This document shows, one piece after another, positions 1 to 6,601 of a DNA stretch of 64,000 nt. The stretch's first letter is position 1, and every line of letters starts with the position of its first letter. The position numbers and the translations under genes are program-made. Under the pieces are notes generated by a model. That model had not been told where the DNA came from. It saw nothing but the letters and a program-made list of their open reading frames with translations, and searched no databases. Source of the stretch: a virus; the IMG/VR virus record IMGVR_UViG_3300049893_001984, positions 128,335-192,334 of that record. One strand, given 5' to 3'.

Positions 1-804
1 CAAATAGTAGTCGTCGTCATCGCTCACATAGTAGGGATGTGTGTTGGGGGTGGATCTGGTCACCCTTTTTTCTTTGTAATACGCACTGTCCGCCCATTTA
101 CTCGCATGTGCGCTGTATCCAGAGTAGCTCGAGTAGCCCGAGTAGCTCGTGGGTTCAATCGTATGCTTAGCTACAAGGGCGTCCCATTTTGGGTCATGAA
201 GAGCTCCGTATGCTCCTTCAACAACACCGGGCAATTCTGCGTCAAAGAATTTGCCGCCAAGTTGCCACCGACAGCTGTAGCTGTGATTCAACTTGTCCAG
301 GTTGCCCACAGTGATGTGCAGCCCGTCAAATTGCTTCTCGTCGTTGTCGTCCGTTCCTGAGTGGAACGCATTCATTGACGCATGACTGTGAATGGTCCCA
401 AACCGGAACCAGCCGTCTGGCGGATCCGCCAAGGTCGATATGTCGTACTTTGCAGAGGCTGCAGATACTGTCTGGACCGGTACCTGCGCATCCCATTGCT
501 TACTCGTGGGATTATAGATCAACACAACAACGGCCTCTGACTTGTGATCGATGTACACCTTCTCGAAGAAGGACTCGATCTGGCGAAATAACTGTAACGG
601 AAGTTTTACCACCTTGATTTCCACTGATTCAGCCAAGGTGGCCATCCCCGGAAGGGTGTCAACTTTCACCCTGACAGTGTAGAAGTCGTTGCTTATCTGT
701 TTGAAGATCCCGTTACTCCCAATCAGATAGCAAAACTTGTCCTCCGGGTAAGTAACCGCTTGTACTTCGTCCTTTTCAGTGGAAACCGGTGGGTTGCCCA
801 CCAT
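1..804 (-). CDS. JAB/MPN metalloprotease (Prok-JAB, PRTRC protein A-like); partial, runs off the left edge
   Basis: Not in ORF track (no stop in window). Manual translation from ATG 804: MVGNPPVSTEKDEV...KSEAVVVLIYN...FGTIHSHASMNAFHSGTDDNDE...DGLHITVG, with JAMM Glu, HxH and SxxD motif. SD-like AAGGTGG upstream. Confidence 0.88.
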   Translation of the reverse strand, partial: MVGNPPVSTEKDEVQAVTYPEDKFCYLIGSNGIFKQISNDFYTVRVKVDTLPGMATLAESVEIKVVKLPLQLFRQIESFFEKVYIDHKSEAVVVLIYNPTSKQWDAQVPVQTVSAASAKYDISTLADPPDGWFRFGTIHSHASMNAFHSGTDDNDEKQFDGLHITVGNLDKLNHSYSCRWQLGGKFFDAELPGVVEGAYGALHDPKWDALVAKHTIEPTSYSGYSSYSGYSAHASKWADSAYYKEKRVTRSTPNTHPYYVSDDDDYYL

Positions 805-928
805 AGTTACCACCTTTGAGACCTTCTTTTCTATCAGATGTATTGGAAGCCTTGGCACAGGTCTATTCCTTTCTTGTGCTAAGTGATTTTCGGTTAAACT
901 CGCATTGTGCGAATTTAAATTGTTTGGA

Positions 929-1459
929 CTACTGCGGGTCTGCGCCGCTGACAGTGCCTGCAACTTCGGCTGTTGCTTCGGCTGTTGTTGCCGCTGTTTC
1001 TGTTGATGCTTGAACGGGTTCCGTGACAGACGGGGCAGATGCTGGGGTGATTGCTGGCAGCGTCTCAAGTTGTGCAAGTTTGAGTGCTTCAGCTTCAGTC
1101 TCCTGCCTTTCAAGTATCGCTCTCTGTTCATTCAATTCCCTCAGCAACTGGCTTCTTCTTGCAGAAGCCTGCCTTGCCTTCGTCTTGTCGTAGTGTTCTG
1201 TCCGTGACAAAATTCTTTGTAGCTGGGCATACGTTCCAGATTCGTCAATTTGTGACTCTTTTATGCAAAACCTCAACCTAATAGAATGTACTGCGTGTGC
1301 CACTAGGCTTTGCATTGGGGTGCCAACAAAGTTTTCCAAATCCTCGATTGGGCACACTAAAAAAGGATGTAAAATATCCACGATGCTCAGTTTTTTCTGG
1401 GAAGGGATCGCGCTTAGTGAATTTTTGAGTTTTATAAATTCTTCTGACTCACGGGTCAT
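929..1459 (-). CDS. Hypothetical coiled-coil protein with Ala/Thr-rich tail, inside the Ubl cassette
   Basis: Track ORF 929..1492. ATG 1459 forms an ATGA overlap with the E2 stop. Confidence 0.7.
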   Translation of the reverse strand: MTRESEEFIKLKNSLSAIPSQKKLSIVDILHPFLVCPIEDLENFVGTPMQSLVAHAVHSIRLRFCIKESQIDESGTYAQLQRILSRTEHYDKTKARQASARRSQLLRELNEQRAILERQETEAEALKLAQLETLPAITPASAPSVTEPVQASTETAATTAEATAEVAGTVSGADPQ

Positions 1460-2178
1460 GAATTCTCCTCTCTGCCTAGTATGGCGCTGCAAAGACCGTC
1501 TAAGGTCTTTAGCTTGTGTCTCTTAAGTGATAACTTCTTGTAAAACTCCTTGTCGTTCTGGGTCTTGGCGTTCCAATCCTCTAGATTTAAGATGGCGCCA
1601 CCGCTGTCTTCTTCGTACCGGACCTCCAGGTCGTCATTCCACGTTGAATTATAGATGAGCTCCTGCGCCAACGTGTTAATGCGAACAACGCGGGGAAGTG
1701 AGGCGTCGACTCCTACCTCGCCAGTGCAAAAGTGCCCGTGCCCTTGCTCATGTACATTGGGCAAGCACAACGTATGGATCTGTGCACCAGTTCCCAGCAG
1801 GCACACATCATCCTTTACGCCTACTGCGTACACACTGGAGGGTATTTCTTCGGAGAAGTGAAAGAGCCAAAGTGTCCATCCGATGGACAGTTTGTAGTTG
1901 TATGACTTGTTCCGGTCCAGGCCAGGACCGCCACGTTTGTAATGCATACGTACAGGTAGTATCTGCGGCGGTTTCTGAATTACGTACAGCGATGATGGTC
2001 TACCTCCGCGCAGACCCGTCATGTACCGAACACAGTCCTTTGGCAAAGGTCCAGTGTCCGTACCGCGACCCTCTTGTGTTTGCTTCAAGTACTCCGTCAG
2101 GTTCACGTCGTGCATTATCATACGACGTATCTGGAGTACATGGTCACCGCGTATTTCAATCACATCCTCTTCTTCCAT
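1456..2178 (-). CDS. Prokaryotic E2-like protein (Prok-E2_D / PRTRC protein B-like)
   Basis: LPNVHEQGHGHFCTG matches the PNV..G..C.G active-site pattern, and STWNDDL matches the downstream F/W-N-D-L motif. Lies between Ubl and JAB. Confidence 0.8.
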   Translation of the reverse strand: MEEEDVIEIRGDHVLQIRRMIMHDVNLTEYLKQTQEGRGTDTGPLPKDCVRYMTGLRGGRPSSLYVIQKPPQILPVRMHYKRGGPGLDRNKSYNYKLSIGWTLWLFHFSEEIPSSVYAVGVKDDVCLLGTGAQIHTLCLPNVHEQGHGHFCTGEVGVDASLPRVVRINTLAQELIYNSTWNDDLEVRYEEDSGGAILNLEDWNAKTQNDKEFYKKLSLKRHKLKTLDGLCSAILGREENS

Positions 2179-2200
2179 TACTGCGCCTCCTTTTTAAAAG

Positions 2201-2237
2201 AAAAAGCCGAGGAGCGCGGCAGGTGCGCTCCTCGGCT
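2201..2237 (-). terminator. Intrinsic terminator between Ubl and E2
   Basis: 13-bp perfect stem AGCCGAGGAGCGC/GCGCTCCTCGGCT followed on the minus strand by TTTTCTTTT. Confidence 0.75.
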
Positions 2238-2272
2238 GGTGTTTATGCTACGACAAACTGCTTACGTAACGG

Positions 2273-2497
2273 CTAGCAGCCCTTCTCGGACGCCATCTTC
2301 ACGAACTCCAGGCGCTGACCGGCCTGGAGGCGGGTTTCGCCGCTGACGGGCATGCCGTCGATGCGGGCCTCGACGTTGCTCGGGAGGTTCAGAACATCCG
2401 TGTACTCATTCCGGATGTCGTTGACCGTGTGGCCAACGATGCTGTCGAGGGTCATCTGGTGCACATTGAACTTCAGCATTGCGGTTTCGCCGTTCAT
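2273..2497 (-). CDS. Ubiquitin-like (beta-grasp, ThiS/MoaD-like) protein
   Basis: 74 aa. TVNDIR...LNLP...ARIDG..V.GETRLQAGQRLEFVK pattern, C-terminus ASEKGC. Confidence 0.85.
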   Translation of the reverse strand: MNGETAMLKFNVHQMTLDSIVGHTVNDIRNEYTDVLNLPSNVEARIDGMPVSGETRLQAGQRLEFVKMASEKGC

Positions 2498-2648
2498 CTT
2501 TCTTTTCTCCTTTGACGCTTGGCGTCAGGGTTGTGTTTTGGTGTGTGTTCGCAGCAGTGTATTCCATAGCCACACCTTGTATGGATACCCTGCCAACTGC
2601 TGTGGGCGTGGCTGTGCCTGAAATCGCTCTTTCTAAGCACAGTATATG

Positions 2649-3011
2649 TCAATCAATGTCAAGCTCGGAGAATACTACCCGGTTAGTTGGCATTGATTTA
2701 TAAACAAGCGGTTTCACAGCTTCGGCAGTAACTACTGGCGATGCTTGTTTCTCCGCCTTTATTAGGGGCAACTCGAAGTCAAACCCACGGGGAGGGGATA
2801 GGGGCTTCACGGTTCCACTGTCCCAATCCGAGAGGCGTGTTACCACGCACTTGAACCCTTTATTGCCTGCTTTGTGTTCTGATGTAAGGTACAGGTGGGC
2901 GGACCTCCACCCGAGCTCCAAGGTGACGGGGAGTGATATTACCTCCCAGTCACCTTTCTCTTCCTTACCCAGAATAGCAAAGCGCTCCTTGCCCTCTGCT
3001 GTCTGTGCCAC
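2649..3011 (-). CDS. Hypothetical protein
   Basis: 120-aa ORF, co-oriented, good SD. Confidence 0.65.
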   Translation of the reverse strand: MAQTAEGKERFAILGKEEKGDWEVISLPVTLELGWRSAHLYLTSEHKAGNKGFKCVVTRLSDWDSGTVKPLSPPRGFDFELPLIKAEKQASPVVTAEAVKPLVYKSMPTNRVVFSELDID

Positions 3012-3016
3012 GTGCC

Positions 3017-3769
3017 TTATTCTCCTTCAAGTACGTTGAGGAGCTTTTCGGCTTTGTCACGGACGGTCCTGACTGTTGCGCGAAGATCTTTTACAACCAG
3101 CTTCAAGGTTTCGCGCTTAGCCTCATCGGGCATTTTGTTGACTTCACGCAAGGCTTCTACCACCTCGTCCAGCTTACGGGTAAGGCCGTCAGCCATAGAG
3201 GTTGTAGACCGGAAGACGACGGCAGGGGATATGCCCCCACGGTTGTCGACCTTGTGCCCACGCTTAACAGCTTCAACTTTCGTCTTCTTATTCAACTGCT
3301 TTACTGTCTCCTGCATGTCTTGTCTTGAAATCTCACCATTGACAAGATTTGTCAGGAGTTCCTTTCGCTTGGTGTGATCCTGGATGGAAAGTGTGTAATT
3401 GAGATCTCGCCAGGAGACTTTCATCTCAATGTAAGGATCCAGGCTCTTCACATCTGGAAATGCCTTGTACAGACGGTGGAATGCTCGTACAGATTCCACG
3501 TCGTACCCAATGCTCTGCCCGAAGTACTCGGCTGTGCTCTTACCGTACTTGTCCGGACTATCCAAGAGTTCGGCCACAAACTCACCTTTCTCCCAGTGAG
3601 ATGTGATAATGTCCTCGCGGATCTTCCTATCCTTCTTCGTGAAGTATTCAACCTTTTGGTTAAAACGCTCAACCAGTTTCTTGTCCTTGATTTCAAGTTT
3701 CAAGGTGTGGTTGATTGTCTTAACAGGTGCTGCACTCTTGGCCTCAGCCAGTTGTGACGACATGGCCAT
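3017..3769 (-). CDS. DUF1016 (YhcG) N-terminal-like helical DNA-binding protein with C-terminal coiled coil
   Basis: HWEKGEFV...KYGKSTAEYF...FHRLYKAFP...VSWRDLNYTLSIQD...ISRQDMQETVK follows the DUF1016_N pattern. Confidence 0.55.
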   Translation of the reverse strand: MAMSSQLAEAKSAAPVKTINHTLKLEIKDKKLVERFNQKVEYFTKKDRKIREDIITSHWEKGEFVAELLDSPDKYGKSTAEYFGQSIGYDVESVRAFHRLYKAFPDVKSLDPYIEMKVSWRDLNYTLSIQDHTKRKELLTNLVNGEISRQDMQETVKQLNKKTKVEAVKRGHKVDNRGGISPAVVFRSTTSMADGLTRKLDEVVEALREVNKMPDEAKRETLKLVVKDLRATVRTVRDKAEKLLNVLEGE

Positions 3770-4208
3770 CTCCTAGTAAATCGTGTAAAAGCGGCGGTTT
3801 TATGGATGATTCGGATTCAGCTGCAGCGGTTCTAAACGACTTAGAAAGCGACTTCAGCATGATCCATCTGTCGTAAAGGTTTAGGAGCCAGTGAGCCACC
3901 TCTAGCTGTTTCTCCGGAACCCCTACTAAATGCAGCTCAACTAGAGCTTTGTATTCTCTTTCGGAGAGCAGATCTTTTGGTACGTTTCGTATCTCGCGCA
4001 AGGCCATCTGACCGAGCACAACCCTCAGGTTTATTGCCAACCTGTGTGTTGGGTTGTATGTAGCGAGATTGAAGAAAACATTCGTAGTGCTCTTCGAAAC
4101 TTTTAATTCATTAAGTTTGTTGAAAAGCTCTCCAAGCTGCCTTCTGTCGCCAGGCGCCGAAGCTTTTACCCTTTTTAGTGATGCTGGTTCTACGGGTTCC
4201 ATATGCAA
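3744..4208 (-). CDS. Hypothetical protein
   Basis: 154-aa ORF overlapping neighbours in an operon. Confidence 0.6.
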   Translation of the reverse strand: MHMEPVEPASLKRVKASAPGDRRQLGELFNKLNELKVSKSTTNVFFNLATYNPTHRLAINLRVVLGQMALREIRNVPKDLLSEREYKALVELHLVGVPEKQLEVAHWLLNLYDRWIMLKSLSKSFRTAAAESESSIKPPLLHDLLGDGHVVTTG

Positions 4209-4657
4209 GCCAACCCTTCCAAAAAGTCACTCCATGTTTGTAAGTAACACAAACCCATGTCATGACTGCAAGCAAGCCTTACCTGGTCTTTTAGGTAGGG
4301 CATTGGCGTGAAATTGTGCAAAATCACAATGTTGGAAGGTCCAAGGGTGCACACAAGCCCCTTGTACTCTTTTCCTCCTTCAAGCATCTCTTCAAAATAT
4401 GCCCAGGCTTTTGTTGATTTTATGTTTAAAAGCGTCTTACCTGGATCGATCGAAACTCTTGCTGAAGCCAGGTATATTGGCATCCCACCGATCCTGCTTC
4501 TAAGCCAGTCAAAACCACGCTCAGAAGCTTGGCTGTCCTCGGTTGATATTTCGAACTTTTGAACAAACGCTTTAACCGCCCGCACAGCTAGAGTGCAGTT
4601 GCCTTTTGCGTTCCTTTCTTCTGCGTTTAACTGCATGTTTTCTAGAAACCCGCCCAT
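4190..4657 (-). CDS. Hypothetical protein
   Basis: 155-aa ORF with SD. Confidence 0.6.
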   Translation of the reverse strand: MGGFLENMQLNAEERNAKGNCTLAVRAVKAFVQKFEISTEDSQASERGFDWLRSRIGGMPIYLASARVSIDPGKTLLNIKSTKAWAYFEEMLEGGKEYKGLVCTLGPSNIVILHNFTPMPYLKDQVRLACSHDMGLCYLQTWSDFLEGLACIWNP

Positions 4658-4669
4658 TTCATCCCCTTA

Positions 4670-5215
4670 TTAGTCAGCTCTTCTGACAAGAGCCATGAAC
4701 TTGGCTATGTCTTTTAGAGTGGGTTTATCTTCTATGTTCATAAACAGAACAGAGGGGTGGATACTTAAAACTAGGGCAAGAGCTTTGACCTTTTCTTCGT
4801 CAGGAACGACATTATTACTCTCTATGTAAGAGATAACTGATTGAGGAGTCTTATGACCTATTCCTGACATCAGTTTTGAAATCTGAAGCTGCGACATGTT
4901 TCTTGCCTTACGCCACAGCTTAATGTTATGTCCGAAGGAAAACGACAAGTCGCCTGAGTAGGTCGGTAATTTTACCTGCTCCGGCTTTTCTTCTCTTTGT
5001 ACGTAATCTGCTGGGTTTTCACCGCCATTGAATTGGAGGTGACTGGGCTTTACCCAGTAAGGCTTGTGCTTGTTCCCGAAGAGGGTTGCCACACGCCCAA
5101 GGTTCTTCTTGTCGTGTGGTCTTACATCCTTGATAGCAAAGCCAACTTCTCCGCGCTTTGCTATCTTCATCCCCTTATCAGTCCTGATGCAACATCTAGC
5201 TGTTACGCTAGCCAT
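4670..5215 (-). CDS. XRE-family HTH transcriptional regulator with extra N-terminal domain
   Basis: FGHNIKLWRKARNMSQLQIS...QSVISYIESN..VPDEEKVKALALVLSIHPSVLF. Confidence 0.85.
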   Translation of the reverse strand: MASVTARCCIRTDKGMKIAKRGEVGFAIKDVRPHDKKNLGRVATLFGNKHKPYWVKPSHLQFNGGENPADYVQREEKPEQVKLPTYSGDLSFSFGHNIKLWRKARNMSQLQISKLMSGIGHKTPQSVISYIESNNVVPDEEKVKALALVLSIHPSVLFMNIEDKPTLKDIAKFMALVRRAD

Positions 5216-5223
5216 GAAAGTTC

Positions 5224-5259
5224 CTCCGCCCGTAATCCATGTGTACGATACGGGCGGAG
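5224..5259 (-). promoter_or_regulatory. Hairpin overlapping the SD of the XRE gene
   Basis: 11-bp stem CTCCGCCCGTA/TACGGGCGGAG. The 3' arm contains GGAG of the GGAGG SD upstream of ATG 5215. Confidence 0.55.
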
Positions 5260-5277
5260 TGAACTATGTCAAATGCA

Positions 5278-6546
5278 TTACAACTCTGCGTCTTCCGGCA
5301 AGGACTCAACCTTGCTGGCGTTCTCCAGTATGTTCAAGTCAACGTTATGTTTAGAACAAGCTGGCATTTCTCCGTCGTAGATCTTGTGGCGGATGATTCC
5401 AAGCGCCTTCTGTAAATCTACGAACAGGTTACGGTCTTCTCTGATCATACGACCAAGGTCTCGACCATGAGTACCACTGACCCCAAGCCGCTTACAGTCG
5501 TAGAAGTCAGACCCAACTGACCGGACAGCACAAATGTCCTTTAGCTGGTTACGCATGTTCTCGCCCAGGTAATCCGAAGAATTCTGGGCAAGGTCCAGGA
5601 ATCTGGCCGTTGACTCGTCCCAATCCCACAAGGCGCCACTGGTGTCGGTTTCAGGGTCCTTGTAGCTGATAAAGTCAAAGTTGAACTTACGGTCAGAAAC
5701 ACCCCAGCTAGACTTCTGACAATGGAACTGCACGGAGTGGATCTCGTGGTCAAGTTTTCGGACCTCTCCGTTTATGTAGAACTGTGCTCGTTCCTTCTTG
5801 CCTACGTTAGCCAGGTAGTAATACAAGGAGGCGAAGAACTTCTGTGCGACACCCCCAGGTGTGTGCTTGACTGCAGGTCTCCCAGGCATGGCACTTGGCT
5901 TTTCCTTCAGATGGTTAATTACCACAAGTGTTTGCGGGTAACCAACCAACAGCGGTATGAACACCTTGAAGTACTTGTCCCAGCCCAAGGCTGCTATGGC
6001 AAACGCCTTATCTGCAAACCCATCCTTCATGACCTTCTCAACCTGGGTAGCAGCGTCGACGCCTGTTAGGGAGTCAATAATCATGCACAAGGGCGTATCG
6101 GTAGCCTTTATCTTATGCGTGTATCTTATGCAGTCTGTGAGAATACTCATAACCTGCTGTGCGTCTGTCGCAGGATCTATGAGCATCTTCTTGTTTTCGT
6201 AATGACCCCGAAGCATGGCCTTAACCATACTGTGCGAGATCTTTTCACCTTCTGTGTCAACCAGTCTGGAGAAGCCTCCGATGTCAGCAAACCATCTTGC
6301 TATCTCGAAGCCCATCCCTGACTTGTGTGAAGCAGGAAACCCAGCAAACCCAACCATCTTGGATAGTGGCAGCACGTTTGAGTCGGATACCCACATTAGG
6401 GCCAGACTCGGGAACTCAATCCCTACGACACGGCTTTCGCCTGTTTCTGCGAAGTACGATCCAGAGGTCTTCGCTCCTATCATCTTTGAAAGAAAGTTGG
6501 GTTCCTGTTCCTTGTCTTCTGTTGAAACTTTATTTCTCTTAGCCAT
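5278..6546 (-). CDS. recA: RecA/UvsX-like recombinase
   Basis: Walker A GFPASHKS, LVDTE, Walker B IIDSL, VVINH, TPGG.AQKFFAS. Confidence 0.88.
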   Translation of the reverse strand: MAKRNKVSTEDKEQEPNFLSKMIGAKTSGSYFAETGESRVVGIEFPSLALMWVSDSNVLPLSKMVGFAGFPASHKSGMGFEIARWFADIGGFSRLVDTEGEKISHSMVKAMLRGHYENKKMLIDPATDAQQVMSILTDCIRYTHKIKATDTPLCMIIDSLTGVDAATQVEKVMKDGFADKAFAIAALGWDKYFKVFIPLLVGYPQTLVVINHLKEKPSAMPGRPAVKHTPGGVAQKFFASLYYYLANVGKKERAQFYINGEVRKLDHEIHSVQFHCQKSSWGVSDRKFNFDFISYKDPETDTSGALWDWDESTARFLDLAQNSSDYLGENMRNQLKDICAVRSVGSDFYDCKRLGVSGTHGRDLGRMIREDRNLFVDLQKALGIIRHKIYDGEMPACSKHNVDLNILENASKVESLPEDAEL

Positions 6547-6572
6547 GTACTACCTCGCCTACTACAAATTAC

Positions 6573-6601
6573 AAAAAGGTCAGTGCCCTTTACACTGACC
6601 T
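6573..6601 (-). terminator. Intrinsic terminator
   Basis: 9-bp stem AGGTCAGTG/CACTGACCT plus T-tract on the minus strand. Confidence 0.6.

Follow-up and report, generated by a model that had tools for sequence, protein, structure and literature searches.

Can a large phage carry a complete ubiquitin-like conjugation machinery of its own? The question is raised by one end of a 64,000-nucleotide stretch (hereafter, the window) that corresponds to bases 128335-192334 of IMGVR_UViG_3300049893_001984, a 192,334-bp IMG/VR virus record with a CheckV completeness of 92%. At the left end of the window, and running past it, lie six closely packed minus-strand genes encoding a ubiquitin-like protein (Ubl), an E2-like carrier protein, a protein that we call X, a JAMM/JAB metallopeptidase (JAB), a ThiF-type E1, and a 205-aa protein. 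The initial annotation had proposed the first four of these as parts of a conjugation cassette and predicted a ThiF E1 just left of base 1; all four are real minus-strand open reading frames (ORFs), and the E1 was found on the adjoining sequence, 341 bases left of the window. We conclude, with a probability of roughly 0.7, that this is a phage-encoded Ubl conjugation operon of the ParB-Related, ThiF-Related Cassette (PRTRC)/6d lineage, consisting of an enzymatic core and a lineage-specific X. The genes for all four activities carry intact catalytic residues (E1 Cys175; E2 N141 and C151; JAB E..HxHx7SxxD), and the coordinates of the features are collected in the table below.

We begin with the Ubl itself. 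Its AlphaFold2 (AF2) model is a beta-grasp fold (mean predicted local distance difference test score, pLDDT, 87) with a disordered C-terminal tail, and the top 50 Foldseek matches in the Protein Data Bank (PDB) are all ubiquitin, SUMO, FAT10, ISG15, MoaD, ThiS, or TtuB, with a probability of 1.00 and template modelling (TM) scores of 0.54-0.71 apart from one outlier, in agreement with the fold first assigned to it. A word-based homologue search with the Ubl returned only the query. From the JAB alignment we obtained 65 viral loci and built a Ubl family hidden Markov model (HMM) from the small ORF adjoining the cassette; this model finds members in 58 of about 68 loci, with E values of 1e-13 to 1e-29. 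The only invariant columns of the family are a terminal Lys-Gly. Of 52 distinct Ubls, 31 stop directly after the Lys-Gly, 15 add one Cys, as the window's own ...EKGC does, and the remaining 6 have other tails (DG, F, TDSVA, IDVGL, VILTK, and IIGTLLKKC). The same set of 52 includes one tri-Ubl (that of L008) and three di-Ubls, in which the head-to-tail joint falls directly after the Lys-Gly. Since variable caps and tandem repeats follow an invariant Gly, the family fits a modifier that is trimmed by a peptidase before C-terminal activation. This pattern argues for processing by the JAB peptidase followed by C-terminal activation, and it is our main new argument for conjugation chemistry. The Ubl is also related to PRTRC protein C of a Cupriavidus plasmid (hhalign E 1.1e-4), with which it has the motif FV(K/R)xAGxKG in common, and the Cupriavidus protein ends ...FVRAAGAKG-AD.

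An E1 and a peptidase that may act on such a precursor are both encoded in the same cassette. The E1 matches Pfam ThiF (PF00899) with 73.4 bits against a cut-off of 28.1 (E 2e-20), and a PF00899 search of the genome yielded no second ThiF-family protein. Its best NCBIfam model is PRTRC_ThiF (TIGR03736; 6.4e-21), where 74.8 bits lie below the 144.75-bit cut-off and the alignment is full-length (2-227 versus 8-239 of 245). Across 61 orthologues whose genes adjoin JAB in viral contigs, conservation of the nucleotide-binding residues (G12xG14G15xG17, D41, N49..R52-Q53, K64, D108-N109, and R113) is 93-100%, and Cys175, in the loop after H159-P-E-I, is present in 100%. These residues match those of an adenylating E1 with a thioester cysteine.

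The JAB protein is closest to PRTRC_A (TIGR03735), which it matches over model positions 29-191 of 192 (E 4e-14, 52.6 bits, below the 101.8-bit cut-off), followed by Prok-JAB at 4e-4. We found 136 JAB homologues, many at about 50% identity and some on contigs of 100-300 kb, and a few of them carry the Joint Genome Institute (JGI) name "PRTRC genetic system protein A". E108, H157, H159, S167, and D170 are invariant in an alignment of 30 sequences, so that the JAMM site E..HxHx7SxxD is intact, as the initial annotation had described it. The N-termini of the homologues begin M-(I/V)-P-(I/L)-H, and because they match at the GTG at window position 858, we placed the start there and rejected the alternative, an upstream ATG within gene X at 1131. 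The last approximately 160 residues form a low-complexity tail that varies between relatives. In the window's protein, the tail (residues ~230-388) reads SYSGYSSYSGYS followed by a T/P/A-rich stretch, and in relatives it is swapped for unrelated tails, some with CxxC...CxxC zinc-ribbon-like motifs.

The E2-like protein is a divergent member of the core. An exhaustive HMMER search yielded 80 clusters of homologues of about 240 aa, and, of 56 homologues, 32 match Prok-E2_D (PF14460; best 2.5e-10) and 20 match PRTRC_B (TIGR03737; best 2e-7), while the window's own protein gave no match to PRTRC_B at E ≤ 0.1. Compared with Cupriavidus protein B by hhalign, it aligns at E 6e-4, including the N...C.G motif. 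The cysteine in GHFCTG that was picked out as a candidate catalytic residue at the outset, Cys151, is invariant among the 56 aligned homologues together with P46, N141, G153, and N181, and P140 is near-invariant. In the resulting motif, L-P-x-P-N-x9-C-x-G, an HPN-like Asn precedes the Cys by ten residues, and the His is missing. The AF2 model is confident (pLDDT 93.3, predicted TM score 0.82); when it was compared with 48,161 chains (VIA), about 33 of the top 50 neighbours were E2, UEV, or RWD proteins, and when the Foldseek top 1000 were re-aligned, this held for about 46 of the best 50. The matches span model residues ~41-218 against whole UBC domains, and Foldseek alone gave no match below E 0.09. 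With the E2 as query, tblastn against phages gave no match, nor did a search for related loci with the single E2; the E2 alignments had no stretch of sufficient conservation for scanning. We read the E2-like protein as a divergent UBC-fold protein, mainly on the basis of transitive homology, the invariant Cys, and gene context.

Between the E2 and JAB genes lies X, whose ATG overlaps the E2 stop codon (ATGA), which bears out the earlier suggestion that the gene at 929-1459 is coupled to E2. The same slot holds a gene of 76-140 aa in the related loci L005-L009, L018, and L056, where it usually overlaps or nearly abuts E2 and JAB, with gaps of up to 13 nt; Salmonella phage Arash and Vibrio phage D69 are without X. 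Sequence kinship is weak (window X versus L006, E 2.7e-4; L005 versus L006, 1.6e-5), and otherwise X has no family or homologue in Pfam, NCBIfam, PHROGs, PADLOC, or a word search, and the ESM Atlas gave nothing usable. Since X keeps its position in relatives with barely detectable similarity, it is an integral yet fast-evolving, lineage-specific component. The substrate adaptor proposed for it at the outset is a guess.

The gene layout also speaks to the relative amounts of tag and enzyme. Strong Shine-Dalgarno sites precede the Ubl, E2, and X genes, and the gap from the JAB stop to the E1 is 32 nt. The region separating the Ubl gene from that of the E2 contains a terminator-like hairpin (minus strand, 2237-2205) with a 13-bp GC-rich stem (10 G-C pairs) followed by a T-run, with a z score of -3.4 and none of 200 shuffles folding equally well. 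All seven short-type relatives examined (layout defined below) likewise have a strong hairpin 3' of their Ubl gene, with a clear U-run in four of them, and the Ubl-to-E2 gap in these seven is 70-117 nt, while the other junctions overlap or are very short. Because of this strong hairpin after the Ubl gene, the layout suggests that more tag than enzyme is made, and the simplest reading is that the hairpin would serve as an attenuator or terminator giving an excess of Ubl over the enzymes.

Table. Positions of the cassette, its hairpin and the adjoining 205-aa gene in the window, the genome, and the extracted locus (L001).
Feature	Position	Strand	Length	Remarks
Ubl	window 2273-2497	-	74 aa	ribosome-binding site AAAGGAG; ends Lys72-Gly73-Cys74
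Terminator-like hairpin and T-run	window 2195..2237	-		between Ubl and E2 genes
E2-like carrier protein	window 1456-2178	-	240 aa	divergent Prok-E2_D/PRTRC_B type; candidate catalytic Cys151
X	window 929-1459	-	176 aa	ribosome-binding site GAGGAG; ATG overlaps E2 stop (ATGA)
JAMM/JAB metallopeptidase	window 858 to 308 nt past left edge; L001:2139-3305	-	388 aa	GTG start
C-terminal part of JAB	genome 128026-128334	-	103 codons	left of window
ThiF-type E1	genome 127133-127993 = L001:1246-2106 = window -1201 to -341	-	286 aa	
205-aa gene	L001:632-1249; genome 126519-127136	-	205 aa	unconserved; just left of window

Dozens of large phages have conserved the cassette. E2, JAB, and E1 occur in the same order in about 57 IMG/VR contigs, at an E2 identity of only about 30%, and two layouts can be told apart. 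The short layout, that of the window, runs Ubl, E2 of about 240 aa, X, JAB, E1. The long layout, found in about 45 viral contigs (L010-L062, e.g., L022:567-9760), starts with a radical-SAM protein, a WYL_2 protein, an unknown, a protein of ~860 aa with an N-terminal Prok-E2_D domain, JAB, and E1, and ends with a protein of ~155 aa that joins an N-terminal Rho_N-like (Rho_N/SAP-like) domain to a C-terminal Ubl, an unknown, and a second ThiF paralogue. Cultured carriers include Salmonella phage Arash (gp246c-249c), Vibrio phages D69, D181, and D148, and Bacillus phages vB_BceM_WH1, Edson, and vB_BauM_KLEB27-3, in which the annotation of the cassette genes does not go beyond hypothetical, ThiF, or structural protein; related sets also occur on Bacillales plasmids. 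In WH1, gp211 (LC597490.1, L072:1146-2045) consists of five tandem Ubl repeats of ~57 aa, each ending ...VIEFKVQAGTKG, plus a 15-residue tail, and E2, JAB, and ThiF follow within 3 kb. Copies of this penta-Ubl are found in Edson (96% identical) and KLEB27-3 (50%). Our literature search, which was limited in reach, found no paper describing this large-phage cassette family.

The identities of the genes, the folds and catalytic residues of their products, their conservation across the family, and the pattern at the C-terminus are seen in the data; from them we infer each of the following chemical steps and, with them, the existence of conjugates. The Ubl would be produced in excess in the form of a precursor with a cap, ending in Lys-Gly-Cys, its gene being separated from those of the enzymes by the hairpin. 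The JAMM peptidase would then remove the cap and expose Gly73, and in relatives it may also cut tandem poly-Ubls into monomers. The ThiF-type E1 would adenylate Gly73 and take over the Ubl as a thioester on Cys175, after which Cys151 in the E2-like protein would receive it. The last step would be the joining of the Ubl to lysines of target proteins by the E2, for which X may be a guide, and the JAB peptidase could also reverse the mark. That the machinery modifies host or replisome proteins or competes with host Ubl defences, as first suggested, is a guess.

Several observations weigh against this reading. The window's Ubl matches no curated HMM in Pfam, NCBIfam, PHROGs, or PADLOC, with no direct match to TIGR03738 or Prok_Ub, and it ends in a single Gly after Lys, so that the classical Gly-Gly is not present. 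The window's E2 likewise has no match in Pfam, NCBIfam, PHROGs, or PADLOC; its structural matches are weak (Z 4.2-5.2), and the E2 family profile recovered no E2 when compared with PDB sequences. X is without a recognisable fold, no E3 and no target were identified, and the literature that we searched yielded no biochemically tested PRTRC/6d system.

Three other explanations have to be weighed against a protein-conjugating operon. It is unlikely, in our view, that the Ubl is instead joined to a lipid, cell-wall, or nucleic-acid acceptor, or that the Ubl or poly-Ubl is a virion building block that the enzymes do no more than process and cross-link. In support of such a role, the WH1 penta-Ubl was deposited as "virion structural protein", the E1 and E2 homologues of Arash are labelled "structural protein" in GenBank, and the long-type Ubl has its N-terminal Rho_N/SAP-like domain. 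On the other hand, our literature search yielded no basis, and no paper, for the WH1 label, and the authors' label in Arash denotes at least 2 unique peptides in particle preparations as detected by mass spectrometry. Since the Arash particle proteome comprises 116 proteins, including ribonucleotide reductases, carry-over is likely; moreover, the gp numbers in the authors' table may not match the GenBank record. The present data give no hint of an acceptor among lipids or nucleic acids. We take from these labels a weak lead, namely that virion or co-injected proteins are a target class worth testing and nothing more.

Quite unlikely is the idea that the cassette, instead of having a core function, is an accessory, Bil-like weapon by which the phage tags and disables its competitors among phages or the defence proteins of the host. 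Bil, type II CBASS (a signaling system against phages that is based on cyclic oligonucleotides), and Bub are immune systems of homologous parts (PMC11601596), and X evolves fast, as conflict genes do. However, the order of the E2-JAB-E1 triad is constant across very divergent large phages, which looks like long vertical inheritance; the cassette proteins except E1 have no PADLOC match below E 0.01, X reaching E 0.026 to PycC at best; and the E1 is a single-domain protein, unlike BilD. Finally, we consider it very improbable that the Ubl is a ThiS/MoaD/TtuB-like sulfur carrier, converted by the E1 into a thiocarboxylate for cofactor or tRNA thiolation, since, although the E1 is a single-domain ThiF/MoeB-type enzyme and the Ubl fold also matches MoaD, ThiS, and TtuB, the cassette is always inherited with a JAB and with an E2-like protein whose Cys is invariant, the Lys-Gly C-terminus is often capped or in tandem, and the operon contains no rhodanese, sulfurtransferase, or cofactor genes.

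A Ubl conjugation operon in a large phage would matter for several reasons. Bacterial ubiquitin-type tagging has so far been shown only as anti-phage host immunity (Bil, type II CBASS, and Bub), and a complete, minimal version in large phages would reverse this picture and make the virus the user of the tag. It is conceivable, though we hold it as rather doubtful, that polyubiquitin-style tagging is a core function in a deep clade of large phages, which would make the tag in excess as capped or tandem precursors, trim it with their JAMM peptidase, and use their E1 and E2 to attach it to virion or co-injected proteins or, at takeover, to host proteins. If this is true, it would be the first complete virus-owned Ubl conjugation system with a defined role in prokaryotic viruses. 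The cultured carriers (Arash; D69, D181, and D148; WH1, Edson, and KLEB27-3) are tractable models. The invariant Lys-Gly end offers a proteomic handle in the form of a mono-Gly remnant after trypsin, and the capped and poly-Ubl precursors offer a simple first assay for the JAB peptidase. The PRTRC/6d family was predicted in 2006 (PMC1779556). The Lys-Gly(-Cys)/poly-Ubl pattern, the conserved hairpin, the conserved position of X, and the cultured-phage examples, including the WH1 penta-Ubl, are new here.

The surroundings of the cassette add little that is shared with other loci. The assignment to a phage is based on the IMG/VR/CheckV record and on the finding of cassette homologues in phages that are in culture; a search of the 192-kb genome for Terminase_6N (PF03237) gave no match, no other phage hallmark genes having been searched for, and blastn of window positions 1-6600 against 50,697 phage records gave no match. 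The ATG of the 205-aa gene overlaps the E1 stop, as in the X/E2 overlap. This gene has a C-x2-C-x12-C-x3-C motif, a possible zinc knuckle, and is without a family match, and the ESM Atlas held nothing usable for it. Since conservation next to the cassette does not extend, in other loci, to the 205-aa gene or any other flanking gene, we did not count them as parts. Upstream of the cassette are genes for an HTH_3 protein (window 4670-5215, minus strand) and a UvsX/RecA-like recombinase (PHROG 97, 5e-15; window 5278-6546, minus strand). A 154-aa and a 250-aa gene at window 3017-4208 occur elsewhere only in the closest relative, L006.

About 18.6 kb left of the window lies a second tag-like pair of genes (genome 108659-109691, minus strand), of which one encodes 118 aa ending ...TLIFTKPPVGG (109335-109691) and the other 224 aa with an LCAHP cysteine (108659-109333). 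In HMM comparisons, neither resembles the families of the Ubl, E2, or JAB, and we claim no link between the pair and the cassette. Because the genome has only one ThiF E1, it is conceivable that the second pair uses that E1.

Among known systems, the nearest is PRTRC (NCBIfam TIGR03734-03742), which corresponds to operon type 6d of Iyer, Burroughs & Aravind 2006 (PMC1779556). PRTRC is the nearest named family of all four phage core proteins, and the E2 is of the same size (240 aa). The initial annotation had likened the order Ubl, E2, JAB, ThiF to PRTRC-type cassettes, and this likeness holds: the canonical order on the Cupriavidus plasmid is ParB-E-C(Ubl)-F-B(E2)-A(JAB)-ThiF, so that the phage order Ubl-E2-X-JAB-E1 and the plasmid order C-F-B-A-ThiF place the four shared parts alike. 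As in 6d E2s, the phage E2 lacks the His of HPN, and a fast-evolving helical extra gene has been noted for 6d too (PMC1779556). On the other hand, all phage scores fall below the curated cut-offs, the unrelated gene X stands between E2 and JAB, the phage JAB has its long low-complexity tail, and the carrier, instead of being a plasmid, an integrative and conjugative element, or a prophage, is a large phage of apparently virulent type. A search of the 192-kb genome for PRTRC ParB stayed empty at E ≤ 0.01, while the controls responded; protein E was not found in the phage genome, with a control responding in Bacteroides; and protein F was not found there either, its model having matched no control genome. 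Since neither ParB nor E is detectable in the phage genome, the cassette is not PRTRC by the NCBIfam definition, and it appears instead to be a reduced, very divergent branch of the 6d lineage. Canonical PRTRC cassettes are also known from the temperate Burkholderia gladioli prophages AB2 and BgVeeders33, where the authors read them as partitioning modules (PMC13366799). These likewise place a PRTRC-type Ubl/E1/E2/JAB set inside a phage genome, but they are full cassettes with ParB, whereas the phage family described here is far more divergent and no ParB was found in it.

Bil, type II CBASS, and Bub (6E) are bacterial antiphage immune systems with demonstrated protein conjugation (PMC11601596), and they have the same parts list as the phage cassette (Ubl, E1, E2, and JAB), including a Ubl precursor that is processed by a JAB or peptidase. 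They differ in how the parts are joined. BilD is a tandem IAD-AAD-CYS E1 (PMC11601596), whereas the phage E1 is one 286-aa ThiF domain; Cap2 of type II CBASS is an E2-E1 fusion, whereas in the phage X and JAB stand between separate genes for the E2 and the E1; and Bub has fused BubAB/BubCD plus DUF6527, whereas the phage parts are all separate genes. No CD-NTase match was found among the scanned genes adjoining the cassette, and the PADLOC likeness of the cassette is limited to the E1 half of Cap2-type models, its "E1-E2" models matching the E1 part alone (4.6e-11). The Ubl family also resembles eukaryotic polyubiquitin and capped ubiquitin precursors, having head-to-tail repeats or a one-residue cap after the activating Gly. 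With eukaryotic ubiquitin the relationship is one of fold only; the phage family ends in Lys-Gly rather than Gly-Gly, and its predicted processing enzyme is a JAMM metallopeptidase.

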